DNA of 64,000 nucleotides, taken from positions 224,001-288,000 of the forward strand of contig CBDEUM010000029.1 of assembly GCA_965242925.1 (NCBI GenBank), written 5' to 3'. Positions 29,384-35,813 of this stretch are shown piece after piece. Position numbers and translations under genes: made by a program. The stretch comes from Roseibacillus sp. (lineage in GTDB: Bacteria > Verrucomicrobiota > Verrucomicrobiia > Verrucomicrobiales > Akkermansiaceae). The notes beneath the pieces are model-generated. The model searched no databases. It was given only the letters and a program-made list of their open reading frames with translations, and was not told the origin of the DNA. Positions within the stretch are counted from its first letter, which is position 1; every line of letters begins with the position of its first letter.

Positions 29384-31132
29384 TCACTTGGAGACCACAA
29401 TGCGCAGGAGGGCGGTCCTGGTGGCGGGGGAAGTGATGGAGGTGTCCTCGACGGTGAGCTGCCATGTGTTCCCCAAGTCATCAATGGCAATCACCGGGGC
29501 GGCCATGGTTCCATCGCCCGTCTCCCAGTAGGTCGTCCAGTTTTGTCCGTCGAGGGAGCTCTGCACCTCGTAGGAGAGATTGGCGGGCTCTTTTTCGTGT
29601 TGGAAGGTGATAGTGGGATGATCGTTGGCGGAGAGACCGGTCCGGAAGTCGAGATCGAGGACGCAGTAGGAAAGTTCGACCGGGAGGACGGTGCTGTCGA
29701 GGTCGCTCACCTCGACGGTGAGGGTGGAGGTTCCGGTGGCCCCGGGAATGGGATTGAGGGTGAGTTCCGTTCCGTTGAGCGAGGCGGTCACAAGGGAAGG
29801 GTTGCTCACTGGACCGAGGCGGTAGGAGAGCAGCTCCTGGAGGCGTCTGGCCTGCACGATCTGGACCAGTTCCCCGACAGCGGGCGTGTTCCCCTCCGGC
29901 TCGGCGGTGGTTGGCCAGTCGGTGAGCGTCTGCTCAGTGTCGTCGACAGTGGCGGAATAATTGCCCCGGGGCCGGGCATGCATGTCAGCCAGGACGGGAA
30001 GCGATCCGGAGGTGGCCCGGCCGAAGACGGTGTATCCGCCATTGGATCCCGGACCATCGAGGGTGGTGTTGTCAATGGTGTTGAAGTAGACTTGGCTTGA
30101 TCCGCTGTTGGGAGCGTTGGTCTTTGCCATGGCGAGGGTGCCGGTCCGATTGGAGAGCCCGGGCTCATCGACCACGTTCGGGTCCGTTACCACCAGGGTG
30201 TAGTCTCCGTTGCCGTCCGGTTTCATGAGGCCGGCCTGGACCACTGCCACGCCGGAGGAGGCCAGGGTCGCCGAGCGATGGAAGATCACCCCGTCGTAAT
30301 CGCCCCGGTCGATATAGTTCAGGAGGTTTTCGATGTGGGCGGGGCAGGCCTCCGGGTAGAGAATGGAGTCGATGTCCCCCAGGTTGGTCTCAAACCGGAT
30401 CGCGATGGGGGTGTCCGGATCGCGGAAGTGCGGGGCCAGATCGTGGCGGATCTGGCCGGAGGGCGGGGCAAGGAAGAGGAAATCCGGCACGGGGGAGTGC
30501 TCCTCCGGTCCCGCGGGGGCGGGCTTGATGCGGAAGGTGACGAAGGTGGTGGCTTCGCTCGTTCCATTGGTGGCGGACACCATGGGGCGGTAGACGCCGG
30601 GAGCAGCGGGGGTTCCCGAGATCACGCCCGTGGTGGGATCAAAATCCCAGCCCGGGGGGAGGTCGGTGACCCCGAAGCTGGAGGCCGTTCCCTCCCCCGG
30701 GGCGGTGTAGATCTGCAGGGCCGGTCCGGTGAGCGGTTCTCCCACGGTGCCTCCGACGAACTGACCGGCTTCGATGGCAAATCCTGAGGGGAGAGTGACT
30801 TCAACCCCCTCGGTCCACTCCGAGTGACCGTCCGGTCTGACGGTCCGCATCCGGAAGGACGCGGTCGTGTTGGGGCTGCCTCCTCTCAGGGAAAGCAATG
30901 TGCTGTTGGCGGGAGCGGTGGCGATGGTGAGCCAGTCCTGTCCCTCGGGCAGGACCTGGAATTCATACTCGGTCTCATCATCGCAGGTGTCCTCCCACGA
31001 GATCTCCAGGGAGGTGGAGGAAAGAAAGGGGATTGCGACCCGGACATTGGCGGGTTCGCACTCTGCGCGGAGAAAACCGCTGGCCAGCATGATCGAGGTG
31101 GTCGCCACCAGGGCGGGGGGCAGGGGGGTCAC
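29384..31132 (-). CDS. Secreted Fn3 + putative Ig (He_PIG) + cyclophilin PPIase multidomain protein
   Basis: ISWED...SEWTE (Fn3); LPPGWDFDPTTGVISGTP (He_PIG); YDGVIFHR, GTLAMAK, NSGSSQ, GYTVFGR (cyclophilin). Start at GTG 31132 is inferred. Confidence 0.82.
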   Translation of the reverse strand: MTPLPPALVATTSIMLASGFLRAECEPANVRVAIPFLSSTSLEISWEDTCDDETEYEFQVLPEGQDWLTIATAPANSTLLSLRGGSPNTTASFRMRTVRPDGHSEWTEGVEVTLPSGFAIEAGQFVGGTVGEPLTGPALQIYTAPGEGTASSFGVTDLPPGWDFDPTTGVISGTPAAPGVYRPMVSATNGTSEATTFVTFRIKPAPAGPEEHSPVPDFLFLAPPSGQIRHDLAPHFRDPDTPIAIRFETNLGDIDSILYPEACPAHIENLLNYIDRGDYDGVIFHRSATLASSGVAVVQAGLMKPDGNGDYTLVVTDPNVVDEPGLSNRTGTLAMAKTNAPNSGSSQVYFNTIDNTTLDGPGSNGGYTVFGRATSGSLPVLADMHARPRGNYSATVDDTEQTLTDWPTTAEPEGNTPAVGELVQIVQARRLQELLSYRLGPVSNPSLVTASLNGTELTLNPIPGATGTSTLTVEVSDLDSTVLPVELSYCVLDLDFRTGLSANDHPTITFQHEKEPANLSYEVQSSLDGQNWTTYWETGDGTMAAPVIAIDDLGNTWQLTVEDTSITSPATRTALLRIVVSK

Positions 31133-31295
31133 GTGGTCTAACAAAGGCGAGAGTTTCGGGTCTGGCAATACCGCTTTTCTGGAACAGAGACCAATTCCTC
31201 CATTCTCCCTGAAGATTGCAGTTGCCAGAAGGGAACGGGATGGAGACGGTACGCGTGCTGTCTTACAGGGGAACGGCAACCACCAGAAAATTCTC

Positions 31296-32045
31296 ATGCC
31301 GAAGGAACACGGGAAGGGCGGGATTGCTCTCTTCGATCTCGATCAGACTCTCATCGCCTGGGACACCCAGCTGCTCTTCTGCAACTGGGTCCTGCGGCGC
31401 GAACCGTTGCGCCGGTTGTACCTCCTGCTCTTCCTGCCCTTTCTGGTTCTGGCCACGGTGCTCGGATCGGAGGGGCTGAAGCGGGTCTTCCTGTCCTTTC
31501 TCTGGCGCATGCCGCGGACGCGGCTGGAGGAACTGGTGGAAGGATTCGTGCGGAGCTGCGTGCCCTCGGAGTTTTACCCCTCCATGCAGGAAGTTCTCGG
31601 GGCGGAGAGGGCCAGGGGCCGCCGTCTCGTGCTGGTCTCGGCCAGTCCCGAGTTCTATGCCCGGCCCCTGGGCGAGGCTCTCGGGTTCGATGCGAGTTAT
31701 GGCACAAGGGTGGAGTTTGAAGACCTGATGCCGCTCTTCCCCGATTTCACCGGAGGGAACAACAAGGGGGAGGTGAAGGTGGCGCGTCTCCTGGAGGAAG
31801 GCGAGATCGCACATGAGGGGATTCAGGAGAACAGCAGCGGATTTTCGGACAGCATGGTGGACCTGCCCATGCTGCGACTCTGTGAGGAAGTAACGGTGGT
31901 CAATCCGGGAGAACGATTGCTTGCCCTCGCCGAGGGGGAGGGCTGGGAGGTGCTACGACCGGAGCGGCCCTTCCTTGGCAGTCGCCAGATGGGCTGGCGA
32001 GGATTGAAGCAGATGGTCGGATTCGATGGCGCCTTCGATGAGTGA
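31296..32045 (+). CDS. HAD-IB family hydrolase
   Basis: FDLDQT, LVSAS, NNKGEVK, FSDSMVDLPML, VVNP. Confidence 0.88.
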   Translation: MPKEHGKGGIALFDLDQTLIAWDTQLLFCNWVLRREPLRRLYLLLFLPFLVLATVLGSEGLKRVFLSFLWRMPRTRLEELVEGFVRSCVPSEFYPSMQEVLGAERARGRRLVLVSASPEFYARPLGEALGFDASYGTRVEFEDLMPLFPDFTGGNNKGEVKVARLLEEGEIAHEGIQENSSGFSDSMVDLPMLRLCEEVTVVNPGERLLALAEGEGWEVLRPERPFLGSRQMGWRGLKQMVGFDGAFDE

Positions 32046-32087
32046 GAAAATCGTTGGGAAATTGGGGAGGATTGGTATAGGGCTCCC

Positions 32088-32205
32088 TTCCAACCGAGAA
32101 CACTAAATCGAAGACGAGCTACCGGCAAGGAGCGTCGGTCGACGCTCAGCGACACGGCTTCCCGCCGCCGGCATCTGCCTCTTGAGGCAGACTTGGCGGT
32201 TTTTT
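32088..32205 (+). ncRNA. Candidate structured leader RNA or sRNA ending in an intrinsic terminator
   Basis: Upstream TTGGGA-16 bp-TATAGG with extended TG; hairpin GAGCGTCG/CGACGCTC (32130-32147); terminator CCGCCGG-CA-TCTGCCTC-TT-GAGGCAGA-C-TTGGCGG-TTTTTT. Confidence 0.45.
32165..32205 (+). terminator. Intrinsic terminator upstream of the ABC operon
   Basis: About 14-bp GC-rich stem followed by T6. Confidence 0.85.
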
Positions 32206-32271
32206 ATTAGTGCTCATAGAGCGGAAAAATCCGCGGGTTGCAGCCATGAACAACACTCATCAGATTGAATC

Positions 32272-33168
32272 ATGCTAAGGAATTTTACCAAGGGTCTTAT
32301 CAGTTGTGGAATAGTGGGCCTCGTCGTGGGCTGTGGAGGGAAGGAAACCAGGGATGGTGCTGAAGAGAGCGCCAAGGTGCTGCGGTTTTCAGCCATCCCG
32401 GATGAGGACACTACCGCACAGAAGGAGCGCTTTCAACCGGTGGCCGACTACCTTTCGCAGGAGCTGGGAATCAAGGTGGAGTTTGTCCCTTCAATCAACT
32501 ATGGTGCATCGGTGGAGAAGTTCGAAAACAACGACATCCAACTGGCCTGGTTCGGAGGGGTAACGGGAGTGCAGGCGATGACGGCGGTTGAGGGAGCGCG
32601 TGCACTGGTTGCCGGAGAAAACGATCTCGCTTTCAAGTCCTACTTCATTGCGAATTCGTCGACCGGGCTGGAGGCGTCGGATGAGTTTCCGGGCGCGATA
32701 GCGAATCTCACCTTCACCTACGGGAGTTCCAGTTCGACGTCAGGCTGTATCATGCCCAGCCACTTCATCATGGAGAATACCGGCAAGGCGCCCCTCGAGT
32801 TCTTCAAGAATAAGCCCGGCTTTTCAGGTGCCCATGACAGGACCGCAATGCAGGTTCAGGATGGGACGTTCCAGGCCGGGGCCCTCAACTACCGCACCTA
32901 CGAGAAGCTGGTTGCAGAGGGAAGACTTGATCCCGAAAAGTGCGTGAAGATCTGGGAGACTCCGCCATACGCGGACTATAACATGACCGCCCACCCGTCT
33001 CTTGAGGAGACCTTCGGGGAGGGGTTCCTCGACAAGCTCCAGGCCGTTCTGGTCGAGTGCGGGGATGAGGCAGCGCTGAAGGCTCTCAATCGGAAGAAGC
33101 TGGTGAAGGTCGATAACGACACCTTTGCAGGCATTGCGACTGTCATGGAGAAAGTGAAGTTCGACTGA
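32272..33168 (+). CDS. PhnD-family ABC substrate-binding lipoprotein ('putative selenate' clade-like)
   Basis: Lipobox LVVGC; FSAIPDED, QLAWFGG, FKSYFIAN, STSG, GAHD, WETPPYADY. Confidence 0.85.
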   Translation: MLRNFTKGLISCGIVGLVVGCGGKETRDGAEESAKVLRFSAIPDEDTTAQKERFQPVADYLSQELGIKVEFVPSINYGASVEKFENNDIQLAWFGGVTGVQAMTAVEGARALVAGENDLAFKSYFIANSSTGLEASDEFPGAIANLTFTYGSSSSTSGCIMPSHFIMENTGKAPLEFFKNKPGFSGAHDRTAMQVQDGTFQAGALNYRTYEKLVAEGRLDPEKCVKIWETPPYADYNMTAHPSLEETFGEGFLDKLQAVLVECGDEAALKALNRKKLVKVDNDTFAGIATVMEKVKFD

Positions 33169-33183: not shown

Positions 33184-33951
33184 ATGGAGATGGTGTTTGA
33201 GCTCGACAATGCGTGCCGGAGCTTTGGCGCGGTGAAGGCGCTTGAAGACATCAATCTCTCGGTTGCAAAAGGTGAGCGAGTTGCGCTCATTGGCGCTTCA
33301 GGGAGCGGGAAGACGACCCTTCTGCGCCTGCTCGGGGCCCAGTTGGCGCCAGACCGGGGATCGGTGCGGGTCCTGGGCTGCGACCCGCTGGGGATGGGCG
33401 AACGGGGCCTGCGCGCCCTTCGTTCGCGCCTGGCGTTCCTTCCGCAGGATCTGGGGCTCGTTTTAAACCTGCGCGTGCTGCAGAACGTGGTGGCAGGTCG
33501 CTGCGGGCGGCGGTCGATTCTCGGAACATTGCGTGATTTGATCTTGCCGGGTCTCGATGTGCGCCGGGAGATCTACGCCCTGCTCGACCGGGTGGGGATT
33601 GGGGAGAAAATGTACGATCGAGTCGACACCCTCTCCGGCGGTCAGCGGCAGAGGGTGGCGGTGGCGCGAGCTCTCTTCCAGGAACCCGTGGCTCTTCTGG
33701 CCGATGAACCGGTATCGGCCGTGGATCCAGCGCGGGCTCGCGATGTCCTCGAATTGCTTGCGCGCTTGTGTGAGGAAGAGGAGTTGACCCTGCTTGTTTC
33801 CATGCATCAGCTCGAACTAGCGAAGGAATTCTTTCCTCGACTGGTCGGCCTGAAGGCGGGCCGCATCGTATTGGACGGCGAACCGTCCGCCCTTGGGGAC
33901 GATAAACTGGACGCTTTGTTCCGACTTGGAGAGGGGGCGGAGGCCTCGTGA
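33184..33951 (+). CDS. PhnC-like ABC ATP-binding protein
   Basis: GASGSGKT, LSGGQRQRV, LADEPVSAVDP, SMHQ. Confidence 0.92.
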   Translation: MEMVFELDNACRSFGAVKALEDINLSVAKGERVALIGASGSGKTTLLRLLGAQLAPDRGSVRVLGCDPLGMGERGLRALRSRLAFLPQDLGLVLNLRVLQNVVAGRCGRRSILGTLRDLILPGLDVRREIYALLDRVGIGEKMYDRVDTLSGGQRQRVAVARALFQEPVALLADEPVSAVDPARARDVLELLARLCEEEELTLLVSMHQLELAKEFFPRLVGLKAGRIVLDGEPSALGDDKLDALFRLGEGAEAS

Positions 33952-35813
33952 AGATACCGGCCAACCTGTGGCTGGGTAAGCGTCTGGTGGTGTTTGCCCT
34001 CGTGTTCGTGTTCGCGGGATGCGCTTTGGTGCTCGGTCCGCGTGTGATCCAGTTGAGAGAGGGCGCCGATCCATTTGCGGAGATCGGGCGCTTTGCTGGA
34101 GCGGCATTTGCACCTTCCCTGGTCGACCAGAATGCATCCCTTCCATCCGACGCGACGCCCTTTCTGGAGCGTCTCGGAGGCAGTATGGGGCGAACCTTCC
34201 GCTACGCCTTGATTGCGATGAGCCTCGCGGTGCCGGCTGGTCTGGTGCTCGGATTCTTCGCCTCCTCGGCGTGGTGGCCGGGGGTAATGACCTATGGACG
34301 GGTCTCAGCGAAGCGGCATATGCTGCGCGGGGCTCTTCGCCTGCTGCGCTGGAGTTGCCGCCTTCTCATCACGCTGGGGCGCTCCATCCATGAACTGGTG
34401 TGGGCCCTGCTCTTCCTTTCGGCGCTCGGGGATGCACCCATTGCGGCCTGTGTGGCCCTCGCCCTTCCCTTTGCGGGAACACTCGGGAAAGTGTTTTCGG
34501 AACTCATCGATGAACAATCGCAGGGCCCGCGGGCTGCTCTCCTGGCCACCGGGGCTTCCCCGCTGCAGGCCTTTGCAGGTGCTCTTTTCCCGCCTGCCCT
34601 TCCCGAGATGCTGACCTACACGGTCTACCGGTTCGAGTGCGCCCTCCGTTCCTCCGCCGTGCTCGGATTTATCGGCGTAGAAACGATCGGGCTGGGCATC
34701 CGCCAGTCCTACGAGAACCTCTTTTATGGTGAAGTGTGGACCCAGCTCTACGCGCTGGTTATTGTTGTTGTAGCGGTTGATGTGGTTGGTGCCCGGTTGC
34801 GGGATCGCCTGAACCGAGGCACCCTGCGGAATCGCGTAGCCGAGACAGCGGGAAAGAGCCTGGAGCGGGCCGAAGAGCTCCTTCGCCGGACGGCCCCGCG
34901 CGATTGGCTCGTGCGGGGTGGGGGGATTGCGGTGGTGATGGTCGTCCTGCTCTCCTGGAATTTCGGGGAGCGACTGGGAACAGATCTCACGCGCGACCAG
35001 CGGACGGAACGTATGGGGCGATTTCTCACCAAGCTCACGCCCGAGCCGGCCCGACCGGATGACAGATTGGCCTCGGGAACAGAACGGGTGGGAGCCCTGT
35101 GGGAGAATTCAGGCGCGGTGGGGGATTGGGCGCGTGATCTCTGGACCCGCAACGGAGCGGAGGCCCTTCTCAATACCGTGGCAATTGCCAGTGCGGCTAT
35201 CGTGCTGGCAGGGATCGGTGCGGCCTTGCTTCTGCCGCTGGGCAGCAGGGCCCTCGCACGGGGAGATCCTTTTGGTGTCCTGGGAACGGCTTCGCGAGGG
35301 GTGCATCTGCTCTGGGCCCTGGTGGGGTTTATGACCCGTGGAGTCTTTGTGCTGGGACGGGCGGTGCCGGAGTATGTCTACGCATTTCTCCTGGTGGGTC
35401 TCCTGGGACCGAGTGCCTGGCCGCTGGTCCTTGCCCTGGCCCTTCATAACCTGGGGATCCTCGGTCGCCTGTGGGGCGAGGTCATGGAAAACCAACGGCC
35501 GGAAGGACCGCGTTACTGGGTTCAGAGCGGGGCAGGGCGCGGCCAGACCTATCTGGGCAGTCTCGCTCCGCTATCCTTCAACCGCTTCCTTCTCTTCTTC
35601 TTCTACCGGTGGGAGACCTGTATCCGGGAAGCCACCATCCTCGGGATGCTTGGGATCTCGTCGCTCGGCTACTACGTCTCGATCTCGCATAACTGGCTTC
35701 GCTACGACCAGATGCTCTTTTATGTCCTGCTGGGAGCGGCGGCTGTCTTTGCAGGGGACCTTCTCTCGGACTGGATGAGACGGAGGCTGCGCGGCACGCC
35801 TGTCAGCCTCTGA
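33948..35813 (+). CDS. PhnE/PtxC-like ABC permease with two fused domains
   Basis: Duplicated motifs: RSIHELVWALLF / RAVPEYVYAFLL and YRFECALRSSAVLG / YRWETCIREATILG; GTGA overlap with the ATPase gene. Confidence 0.9.
   Translation: MKIPANLWLGKRLVVFALVFVFAGCALVLGPRVIQLREGADPFAEIGRFAGAAFAPSLVDQNASLPSDATPFLERLGGSMGRTFRYALIAMSLAVPAGLVLGFFASSAWWPGVMTYGRVSAKRHMLRGALRLLRWSCRLLITLGRSIHELVWALLFLSALGDAPIAACVALALPFAGTLGKVFSELIDEQSQGPRAALLATGASPLQAFAGALFPPALPEMLTYTVYRFECALRSSAVLGFIGVETIGLGIRQSYENLFYGEVWTQLYALVIVVVAVDVVGARLRDRLNRGTLRNRVAETAGKSLERAEELLRRTAPRDWLVRGGGIAVVMVVLLSWNFGERLGTDLTRDQRTERMGRFLTKLTPEPARPDDRLASGTERVGALWENSGAVGDWARDLWTRNGAEALLNTVAIASAAIVLAGIGAALLLPLGSRALARGDPFGVLGTASRGVHLLWALVGFMTRGVFVLGRAVPEYVYAFLLVGLLGPSAWPLVLALALHNLGILGRLWGEVMENQRPEGPRYWVQSGAGRGQTYLGSLAPLSFNRFLLFFFYRWETCIREATILGMLGISSLGYYVSISHNWLRYDQMLFYVLLGAAAVFAGDLLSDWMRRRLRGTPVSL

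Follow-up and report, generated by a model that had tools for sequence, protein, structure and literature searches.

A conserved hairpin-terminator leader ahead of a putative selenate transporter operon in Roseibacillus as a candidate translation-coupled attenuator with a SECIS-like hairpin

A 226-nt spacer (positions 32,046 to 32,271) separating a gene for a HAD-IB family hydrolase from a three-gene ATP-binding cassette (ABC) operon with a PhnD-like, putatively selenate-binding first product was analysed in a 64,000-nt stretch of a Roseibacillus sp. genome (GCA_965242925.1, contig CBDEUM010000029.1, positions 224,001 to 288,000 of the forward strand). This stretch is henceforth called the window, all coordinates refer to it, and the genome it comes from is designated G000. 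Within the spacer, a promoter-like site, a short leader reading frame, a 7-bp hairpin resembling a selenocysteine insertion sequence (SECIS), and an intrinsic terminator overlapping the end of the frame follow one another on the plus strand (Table 1). Hairpin and terminator very probably constitute a real, conserved cis-regulatory attenuator. The fuller proposal, i.e., a transcription attenuator within a short translated leader, possibly sensed via SelB and selenocysteinyl-tRNA (Sec-tRNASec), is one to which we give about equal weight for and against.

Covariation was determined on 39 distinct sequences, drawn from four genera belonging to a single family and from marine metagenomes. In the hairpin, 100% of the cells were paired and five of the seven base pairs change on both sides; in the terminator stem, the respective values were 94.1% and eight of ten. 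None of 500 shuffles reached the observed pairing values, and sliding the pairing partners against each other reduced pairing to 36–52%. Covariation, which a preliminary description made from the window alone had proposed as a check, was thus found in both structures. The G-U wobbles in the hairpin are legal on the plus strand only, which rules out a DNA palindrome as well as a minus-strand RNA. The GGUC tetraloop of the hairpin was invariant in all 45 distinct sequences. The terminator consists of a GC-rich stem-loop followed by a U-run on the transcribed strand, with an outer stem (CCGCC, 32,165–32,169, pairing with GGCGG, 32,195–32,199), an inner stem (TCTGCCT, 32,174–32,180, with AGGCAGA, 32,185–32,191), and six T residues (32,200–32,205), and it ends 66 nt before the ATG of the first operon gene at 32,272. 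A U-run follows the terminator stem in the homologous sequences compared, save for one weak match (L179), and the divergent metagenome locus L106 has a shortened form. Simple scanners called neither feature of the element: they reported no terminator, the internal loop not being allowed by the scanner, and a single promoter-like site, on the minus strand. When 32,085–32,275 was folded, both hairpins were present in the minimum free energy (MFE) and centroid structures, and the fold was mildly more stable than those of shuffled sequences (z = -2.11). Given scanners that remained silent and folding only mildly better than shuffles, the case rests on comparison.

No further conserved structure was detected. 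A search of all column pairs for a helix or pseudoknot yielded no run of at least 4 pairs with more than 2 cells changed on both sides, and RNAalifold on truncated alignments returned the hairpin only. Hairpin and terminator alone covary, i.e., the several covarying helices or the pseudoknot typical of a riboswitch were not found, and hence a multi-helix aptamer is not present. Two pairings put forward in the preliminary description did not hold up in the 39 sequences: the outer stem GAAGACG/CGGCTTC can be formed in the window, yet only 51.0% of its cells are paired across the alignment, and the antiterminator CCGGC/GCCGG, likewise possible in the window, reaches 57.3%. The CCGGC strand is private to the window's genome, its closest relatives carrying CCAGC, and the reduced pairing CGGC/GCCG is paired in 75.2% of cells without covariation. 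A pairing of the purine-rich 5' strand with the U-run was considered as well and discarded, as it pairs through composition only. Searches against Rfam 15 returned one tRNA only for the whole window at gathering score, two chance matches for 31,950–32,350 at E ≤ 10, and, for six diverse homologous loci at E ≤ 1, no match on the element, riboswitch classes and SECIS_2-5 included. The earlier statement that the element could not be matched to a recognised riboswitch class agrees with the absence of any family match in these searches.

The hairpin lies within a reading frame that is open up to the terminator. A conserved in-frame start codon, ATG or (in a few cases) GTG, was found in 42 of 45 distinct sequences; the remaining three are the window lineage with CTA, i.e., the window and the metagenome contigs L111 and L052, and the occurrence of CTA in these two contigs shows that the start loss is not an assembly error. 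No in-frame stop occurs before the terminator in any of the 35 sequences inspected for it. The distance from start to hairpin is 21, 24, 27, or 30 nt, always a multiple of three, so that insertions and deletions comprise whole codons (for L179, the scripted value of 33 nt counts from a farther upstream in-frame GTG). The leader stop always lies in or just past the terminator (in or after its 5' arm). Detached leader open reading frames (ORFs) comprise 22–59 codons, and a detached leader stands before the PhnD-like operon in all four genera. The residues encoded by the hairpin vary freely (ERRSAL, GRGSTS, GCGSTA, EDGSIF) with the pairing retained, and hence it is the RNA, not the peptide, that is constrained at the hairpin. 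At locus L038 (genome G027), the 54-codon leader ends in a TGA that shares bases with the start codon of the binding-protein gene (ATGA). Such overlaps are a usual sign of translational coupling.

In several lineages, the leader frame continues directly into a porin ORF, namely in genus g9 (L037, L060, L097), genus g15 (L039, L167), genus g11 (6 of 9 loci), and the metagenome locus L106. The fused porin genes are about 440 aa long, and the module makes up their first ~45 codons, i.e., the signal peptide. This long signal peptide is composed of a basic N-terminus, the hairpin-encoded part (G-x-G-S-T), and a hydrophobic core encoded by the terminator, whose U-run gives Phe and Leu. No other signal peptide was found between terminator and mature protein in the fused forms of g9 and g15, and in L173 and L174 the terminator region offers no start codon, so that the terminator itself encodes the hydrophobic part of the signal peptide. 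The porin of g11 is homologous to that of genus g1 (35% identity, E = 1e-62), which in turn matches Porin_O_P (PF07396). The protein of L106 is unrelated to the g1 porin (BLASTP E = 1.0) and itself weakly porin-like (Porin_4, 24.2 bits, under the cut-off of 27); the module is therefore portable. One 5' module thus sits on two unrelated outer-membrane genes, and, whatever becomes of the selenium proposal, a single stretch of RNA clearly satisfies three constraints at once, as a signal peptide, a covarying hairpin, and a covarying terminator, in a module that moves between unrelated genes. When the N-terminal 60 residues of a fused porin were used as a protein query, its own cluster only was retrieved. 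At L106 (positions 363–1499), the divergent copy with its porin-like gene is located directly behind a gene for a class-V aminotransferase (PF00266), a family that takes in cysteine desulfurases and selenocysteine lyases.

The distribution of the element was determined at several levels. BLAST of the spacer against 60 relatives matched 15 of 19 other genomes of the same genus, whereas the 41 genomes from other genera gave no hit; in the more distant matches, the hairpin and the bases after it align at 85–93% identity and the remaining spacer is unalignable. With a covariance model built on 14 sequences, the element was detected in 20 of 151 family genomes (14/15, 2/2, and 3/9 in three genera), and with a broader model also in a fourth genus (9 of 41 genomes). 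Two genomes (G029 and G033) were negative in the strict model search and positive with filters switched off; these counts are hence lower bounds. Using strict filters, none of 114 genomes outside the family (order level) and none of 36 further family genomes, 31 of them from one genus, gave a match, the order-level result meaning that the element was not found by a search whose filters had lost two true members, and not that it is absent. A pattern scan of metagenome contigs yielded 114 stretches, and 18 of the 80 retrieved were true members; most of these are of marine origin and closely resemble copies already known, with L106 as a divergent case. Conservation upstream of orthologous binding-protein genes, on which the preliminary description had made its proposal depend, is thus present in relatives of four genera. 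The order HAD gene, element, binding-protein gene is kept in all 16 loci compared. Four genomes of the same genus additionally carry a second copy, which lies behind an unrelated rhamnosidase gene and before a gene for an OprO/P-like porin (Porin_O_P, PF07396, 48.5 bits) with its own signal peptide. These second copies show that the element does not depend on the HAD gene. The window's genome encodes an OprO/P-like porin of its own (L169, G000:C42:56386-57585, minus strand) that shares 78% identity with the porin under leader control in relatives; the 1.5 kb upstream of it contained no copy of the element, and BLAST of the element against its own genome gave chance-level matches only.

The second invariant feature besides the loop is an in-frame CGA codon, which precedes the hairpin base by exactly 12 nt and is present in 45 of 45 distinct sequences (44 counted by script, L172 by eye). 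Between start codon and CGA, the number of whole codons is variable, other Arg positions of the leader use several codons, and CGA accounts for 8.6% of the Arg codons in long ORFs of the window's genome. With codon and loop invariant, the distance to the start variable, and CGA a minor codon, the combination of CGA, 12 nt, and GGUC hairpin behaves as a unit. GGUC is the apical loop of the minimal E. coli SECIS as quoted in PMC3834832, and this loop with its SelB-recognised GU occurs in all 45 sequences; an in-frame UGA upstream of the hairpin does not occur in any of them, the register position being taken by CGA throughout. The sole UGA (inside AUGA) is out of frame and belongs to no ORF, and frame +1 is closed.

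Selenocysteine machinery and true SECIS elements are encoded in the same hosts, i.e., SelB, SelD, and selenoproteins are all represented. A selB gene is present (287.5 bits against a cut-off of 242.25), and selD contains an in-frame TGA in the window's genome and in all five other element-bearing genomes examined; in G000, this TGA is followed by a GGUC-containing hairpin. The TGA of selD is situated at the active-site position CAG-U-ASK (L180, position 1531, G000:C14), as in the five relatives and in 35 of 36 matches in a neighbouring genus. In a family of FG-GAP/UnbV_ASPIC/AhpC-like proteins, a single in-frame TGA was found in 20 of 21 matches from five element-bearing genomes, and of 13 loci of this family, 12 show TGA, 11 nt, a GC-rich stem of 6–7 bp, and a GGUC loop. 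These loci (L187 = G000:C12:49642-52245; L196–L207) encode large proteins with the TGA inside a '...DL-U-S..WR' motif, and since a genome can hold as many as seven paralogues, the selenoprotein family seems to have expanded. Taken together, the leader hairpin appears to copy the SECIS of its host in loop, type of stem, and, within 2 nt, register, with CGA replacing UGA. The preliminary description had suggested that the ligand of the RNA could reveal the substrate of the transporter; this stands insofar as the element points to selenium, and it does not stand as to the route, as the pointer is a SECIS-like hairpin and not a small-molecule aptamer.

The leaders of E. coli pyrBI and pyrE have a reading frame that overlaps an intrinsic terminator, and they sense UTP via polymerase pausing in U-rich tracts. 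As in those leaders, a closely following ribosome would prevent the terminator hairpin from forming and no antiterminator would be needed; the present element differs in that a hairpin lying ahead of the ribosome is the candidate sensor and that the 'leader' is often a true signal-peptide coding region. With the true bacterial SECIS elements of E. coli and of the FG-GAP genes, it shares the GC-rich stem of 6–7 bp, the GGUC cap, and the in-frame position a short, constant distance behind a particular codon; unlike these, the codon is CGA (Arg) and not UGA, the distance is 12 nt and not 11, the stem is one pair longer, and no selenocysteine can be inserted. A parallel in sensing concerns the E. 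coli selAB operon, whose SECIS-like element lacks a UGA, is bound by SelB-GTP-Sec-tRNASec, and represses the operon (PMC13449736). Both elements have a SECIS apical loop without UGA and open a regulated mRNA, both hosts use selenocysteine, and both elements are expected to report the supply of Sec-tRNASec through SelB. The E. coli element, however, is untranslated, is separated by 3 nt from the Shine-Dalgarno sequence, and prevents sel genes from being initiated, whereas the hairpin of the window is in a leader ORF, 12 nt after CGA and followed by a terminator, and would control a transporter and in relatives also a porin, with SelB binding being putative. In Treponema primitia, selenium controls transcription of fdhF(Sec) via translational coupling (PMC3892789). 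Both cases would let selenium status reach transcription elongation through ribosome progress at a SECIS, but in T. primitia the ribosome decodes a genuine UGA within the gene of a selenoprotein, and here a leader without UGA precedes uptake genes. Upstream ORF (uORF) candidates with a terminator stem, e.g., the fthC and ilvB motifs, are presented in PMC11109978, and they likewise have a conserved start, an in-frame stop in or near the terminator stem, and a constant type of downstream gene; our leader differs from them in having neither enrichment of codons for a sensed amino acid nor an antiterminator, in its variable stop, and in its occurrence as a module fused to a main ORF.

The following course of events is proposed. 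Transcription from the promoter at about 32,054–32,081 would yield a leader RNA of ~118 nt, on which, in relatives, a ribosome would start at the conserved AUG and read a few basic codons before arriving at the invariant CGA. It would then meet the 7-bp hairpin with its GGUC loop 12 nt past CGA, the frame continuing into or through the terminator. A ribosome close behind RNA polymerase would cover the 5' arm of the terminator, and transcription would proceed into the transporter or porin genes; a ribosome held at the hairpin would leave the polymerase uncoupled, and the terminator would form. SelB loaded with Sec-tRNASec would be the likeliest agent to hold the ribosome because the hairpin mimics the organism's own SECIS, and plentiful selenium would then turn the uptake genes down. 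Antitermination by the ribosome, SelB binding, and the direction of the response are inferred here. That attenuation is coupled to translation is a proposition on which we stand midway, and sensing through SelB is put forward as a tentative possibility. The most specific version is rather doubtful: SelB-Sec-tRNASec on the SECIS mimic would meet the ribosome at the near-cognate CGA, which is one base from UGA, would be unable to deliver its tRNA, and would stall the ribosome, whereupon the terminator would form and selenium-replete cells would shut off the OprO/P-like porin and the TIGR04553 transporter.

Several observations weigh against a translated, selenium-sensing leader. The loop is at +23 from CGA as compared with +21 from UGA in true SECIS elements, and the window's genome contains 89 GGUC-capped hairpins whose stems have 6 bp or more, so that the loop taken by itself says little. 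Among 301 genomes of the phylum, TIGR04553 matches occur in five, G000 included, and upstream of the TIGR04553-type genes elsewhere in the phylum no comparable hairpin was found: L194 had no GGUC hairpin upstream, L191 and L195 had nothing, with gene orientation uncertain, and L192 had one 5-bp GGUC hairpin ~500 nt upstream. In genus g11, selD is present in 36 of 41 genomes and the element in 9 of 41; hence, their co-occurrence says little either. No Shine-Dalgarno sequence is conserved in the 20 nt upstream of the AUG. The 9-nt linker changes among close relatives mostly at codon positions 1 and 2 and not at 3 (judged by eye), i.e., coding-type selection is not seen in it. None of the antiterminator helices among the pairings tested was supported. 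Furthermore, the copy in the window has lost the leader start codon with its RNA features intact, which means that the element can do without translation or else that the window carries a copy in decay; it may be a partly decayed, mostly terminating version or may work at the RNA level alone. Contigs from an RNA library span 31,890–32,120, from the HAD gene into the element, and 32,103–32,290, over the terminator into the first operon gene; their depth is ~3 and carry-over of DNA is possible, so they are weak hints of transcript extent.

Four other explanations were weighed against the translated attenuator. A riboswitch for a metabolite or ion, in which a small aptamer binding an oxyanion or a related compound would be made up of the conserved 5' strand and the hairpin, with the terminator as expression platform, would account for a 5' part conserved in sequence next to a terminator conserved in structure and variable in sequence, for the occurrence ahead of two kinds of uptake genes without a counterpart in Rfam, and for the persistence of the RNA features in the window despite the lost start codon. 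One short hairpin with a 4-nt loop, however, without a second helix, pseudoknot, or alternative pairing that covaries, is all there is to such an aptamer, the conserved unit keeps a reading frame and forms part of porin genes, and its invariant features are a CGA codon and a loop identical to that of SECIS elements; we regard a riboswitch as quite improbable. Classical attenuation through a run of codons for a sensed amino acid together with an antiterminator does not match the data either, the leader being Arg-rich, its genes not Arg-related, and an antiterminator lacking. Porin mRNAs are common targets of small RNAs (sRNAs) near their first codons. An sRNA or an RNA-binding protein other than SelB could act on the start region or hairpin of these porin-type mRNAs, with termination as a downstream consequence, and the conserved single-stranded purine-rich stretch around the start codon together with the invariant loop does suggest recognition in trans. 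This is nevertheless unlikely, as the search of the own genome pointed to no partner and as neither the CGA register nor the identity with the SECIS loop would be explained.

That the element is a stand-alone sRNA of ~118 nt acting elsewhere, the alternative offered in the preliminary description, agrees with a discrete unit bounded by a promoter-like site and a strong terminator and present in 15 of 19 other genomes of the genus. It is always found, however, on the same strand as a porin or binding-protein gene, which it either directly precedes or begins, is coding sequence in the fused forms, and in the RNA library is continued past the terminator, if weakly so; the sRNA reading is therefore given hardly any credence. 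A relic without regulatory role, i.e., what is left of the 5' end of a porin gene that has been lost, with the hairpin now terminating the HAD transcript, would be in line with the missing start codon of the window, the charged residues in the hydrophobic part of its peptide, the lack of a terminator between the HAD stop codon and the element, and the RNA-library contig running from the HAD gene into it. It is very improbable, since a relic would not hold 100% pairing with compensatory changes and an invariant loop and codon in 45 sequences of four genera with unalignable flanks, and since the detached form recurs in four genera, also before a porin with its own signal peptide. The conserved frame, which continues into porin genes in several lineages, fits a translated leader or attenuator better than a riboswitch or a stand-alone sRNA.

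Should the translated, selenium-sensing leader be correct, it would represent a selenium-sensing attenuator of an undescribed type, with one stretch encoding signal peptide, sensor hairpin, and terminator in several genera, and it would provide the first independent, RNA-based evidence for the porin and the TIGR04553 transporter as uptake genes for selenium oxyanions. Regulation based on SelB, with E. coli selAB as its single example, would then come to include attenuation of transcription as well as genes for transport, and a testable case would be available for the regulation of bacterial selenium uptake, a little-known subject. The element would combine known kinds of control, i.e., SECIS-like regulation and translation-coupled attenuation; it is narrow in distribution but unusually informative. 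No description of it was found in the literature, with most subscription journals outside the coverage of the search.

Table 1 Features of the leader element and of the adjacent genes in the window
Feature	Position	Strand	Basis	Details
Promoter-like site	32054..32081	+	Sequence, comparison	TTGGGA (32054-32059), 16 nt, TATAGG (32076-32081); TG at 32073-32074
Leader reading frame	32103..32210	+	Frame comparison	35 codons; starts with CTA; stop TAG 32208-32210 just past T-run
Invariant in-frame CGA codon	32115..32117	+	45/45 distinct sequences	Exactly 12 nt before hairpin base
SECIS-like 7-bp hairpin	32130..32147	+	Covariation	GAGCGTC-GGTC-GACGCTC; loop GGUC 32137-32140
Intrinsic terminator	32164..32205	+	Covariation	Interrupted GC-rich stem, then T6; overlaps end of leader frame
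Small GC hairpin plus adjoining bases	32221..32236	+	MFE and centroid folds	GCGGA-AAAA-TCCGC; between terminator and ATG
HAD-IB family hydrolase gene	30867..32045	+	Longest ORF	TGA at 32043-32045; upstream neighbour of element
PhnD-like substrate-binding lipoprotein	32272..33168	+	TIGR04553, PF12974	First gene under leader
PhnC-like ABC ATPase	33184..33951	+	Pfam PF00005; TIGR02315	TIGR02315 221.5 bits, under cut-off 266.1
Fused double PhnE-like permease	33948..35813	+	TIGR01097; PF00528	TIGR01097 253.1 bits, over cut-off, two matched stretches; PF00528, two stretches

Promoter, hairpin, and terminator were read directly from the sequence and lie where the preliminary description had placed them. 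The proposed promoter on the plus strand gains support from comparison: the TG of the extended -10 element and part of the -10 element itself are invariant in 15 of 15 sequences of the same genus, and in other genera a TGnTAnnn-like motif lies 25–45 nt ahead of the start codon (by eye). A second promoter suggested for the operon, TTGCAG-17-CAGATT, is not upheld, as transcription from it would begin at or after the ATG and as it is alignable in the closest relatives only. A T/C-rich motif, TTTTCC(C)TTTC(C)GG, was observed 20–25 nt upstream of the -10-like motif (L008, L010–L015, L036, L040, L041); three genera have it conserved at many of their loci, and it may represent a -35 element or a site for an activator; in the window, TCGTTGGGAAA stands in its place. 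The small GC hairpin between terminator and ATG has no U-run, and relatives show a different GC hairpin at this place (by eye).

The product of the first operon gene matches the NCBIfam model TIGR04553, 'putative selenate ABC transporter substrate-binding protein', with 272.5 bits (cut-off 250). We take this name to be a product of phylogenetic profiling, and the substrate of the transporter family is so far only guessed. For the HAD-IB gene, homologues point to a later start giving ~249 aa, and its product was assigned by Pfam PF12710 (111.5 bits) and NCBIfam TIGR01488 (56.7 bits, over the cut-off). A weak CRISPR-DR9-like match inside this gene (31,978–32,010, 16 bits, E = 0.95) was judged to be due to chance.

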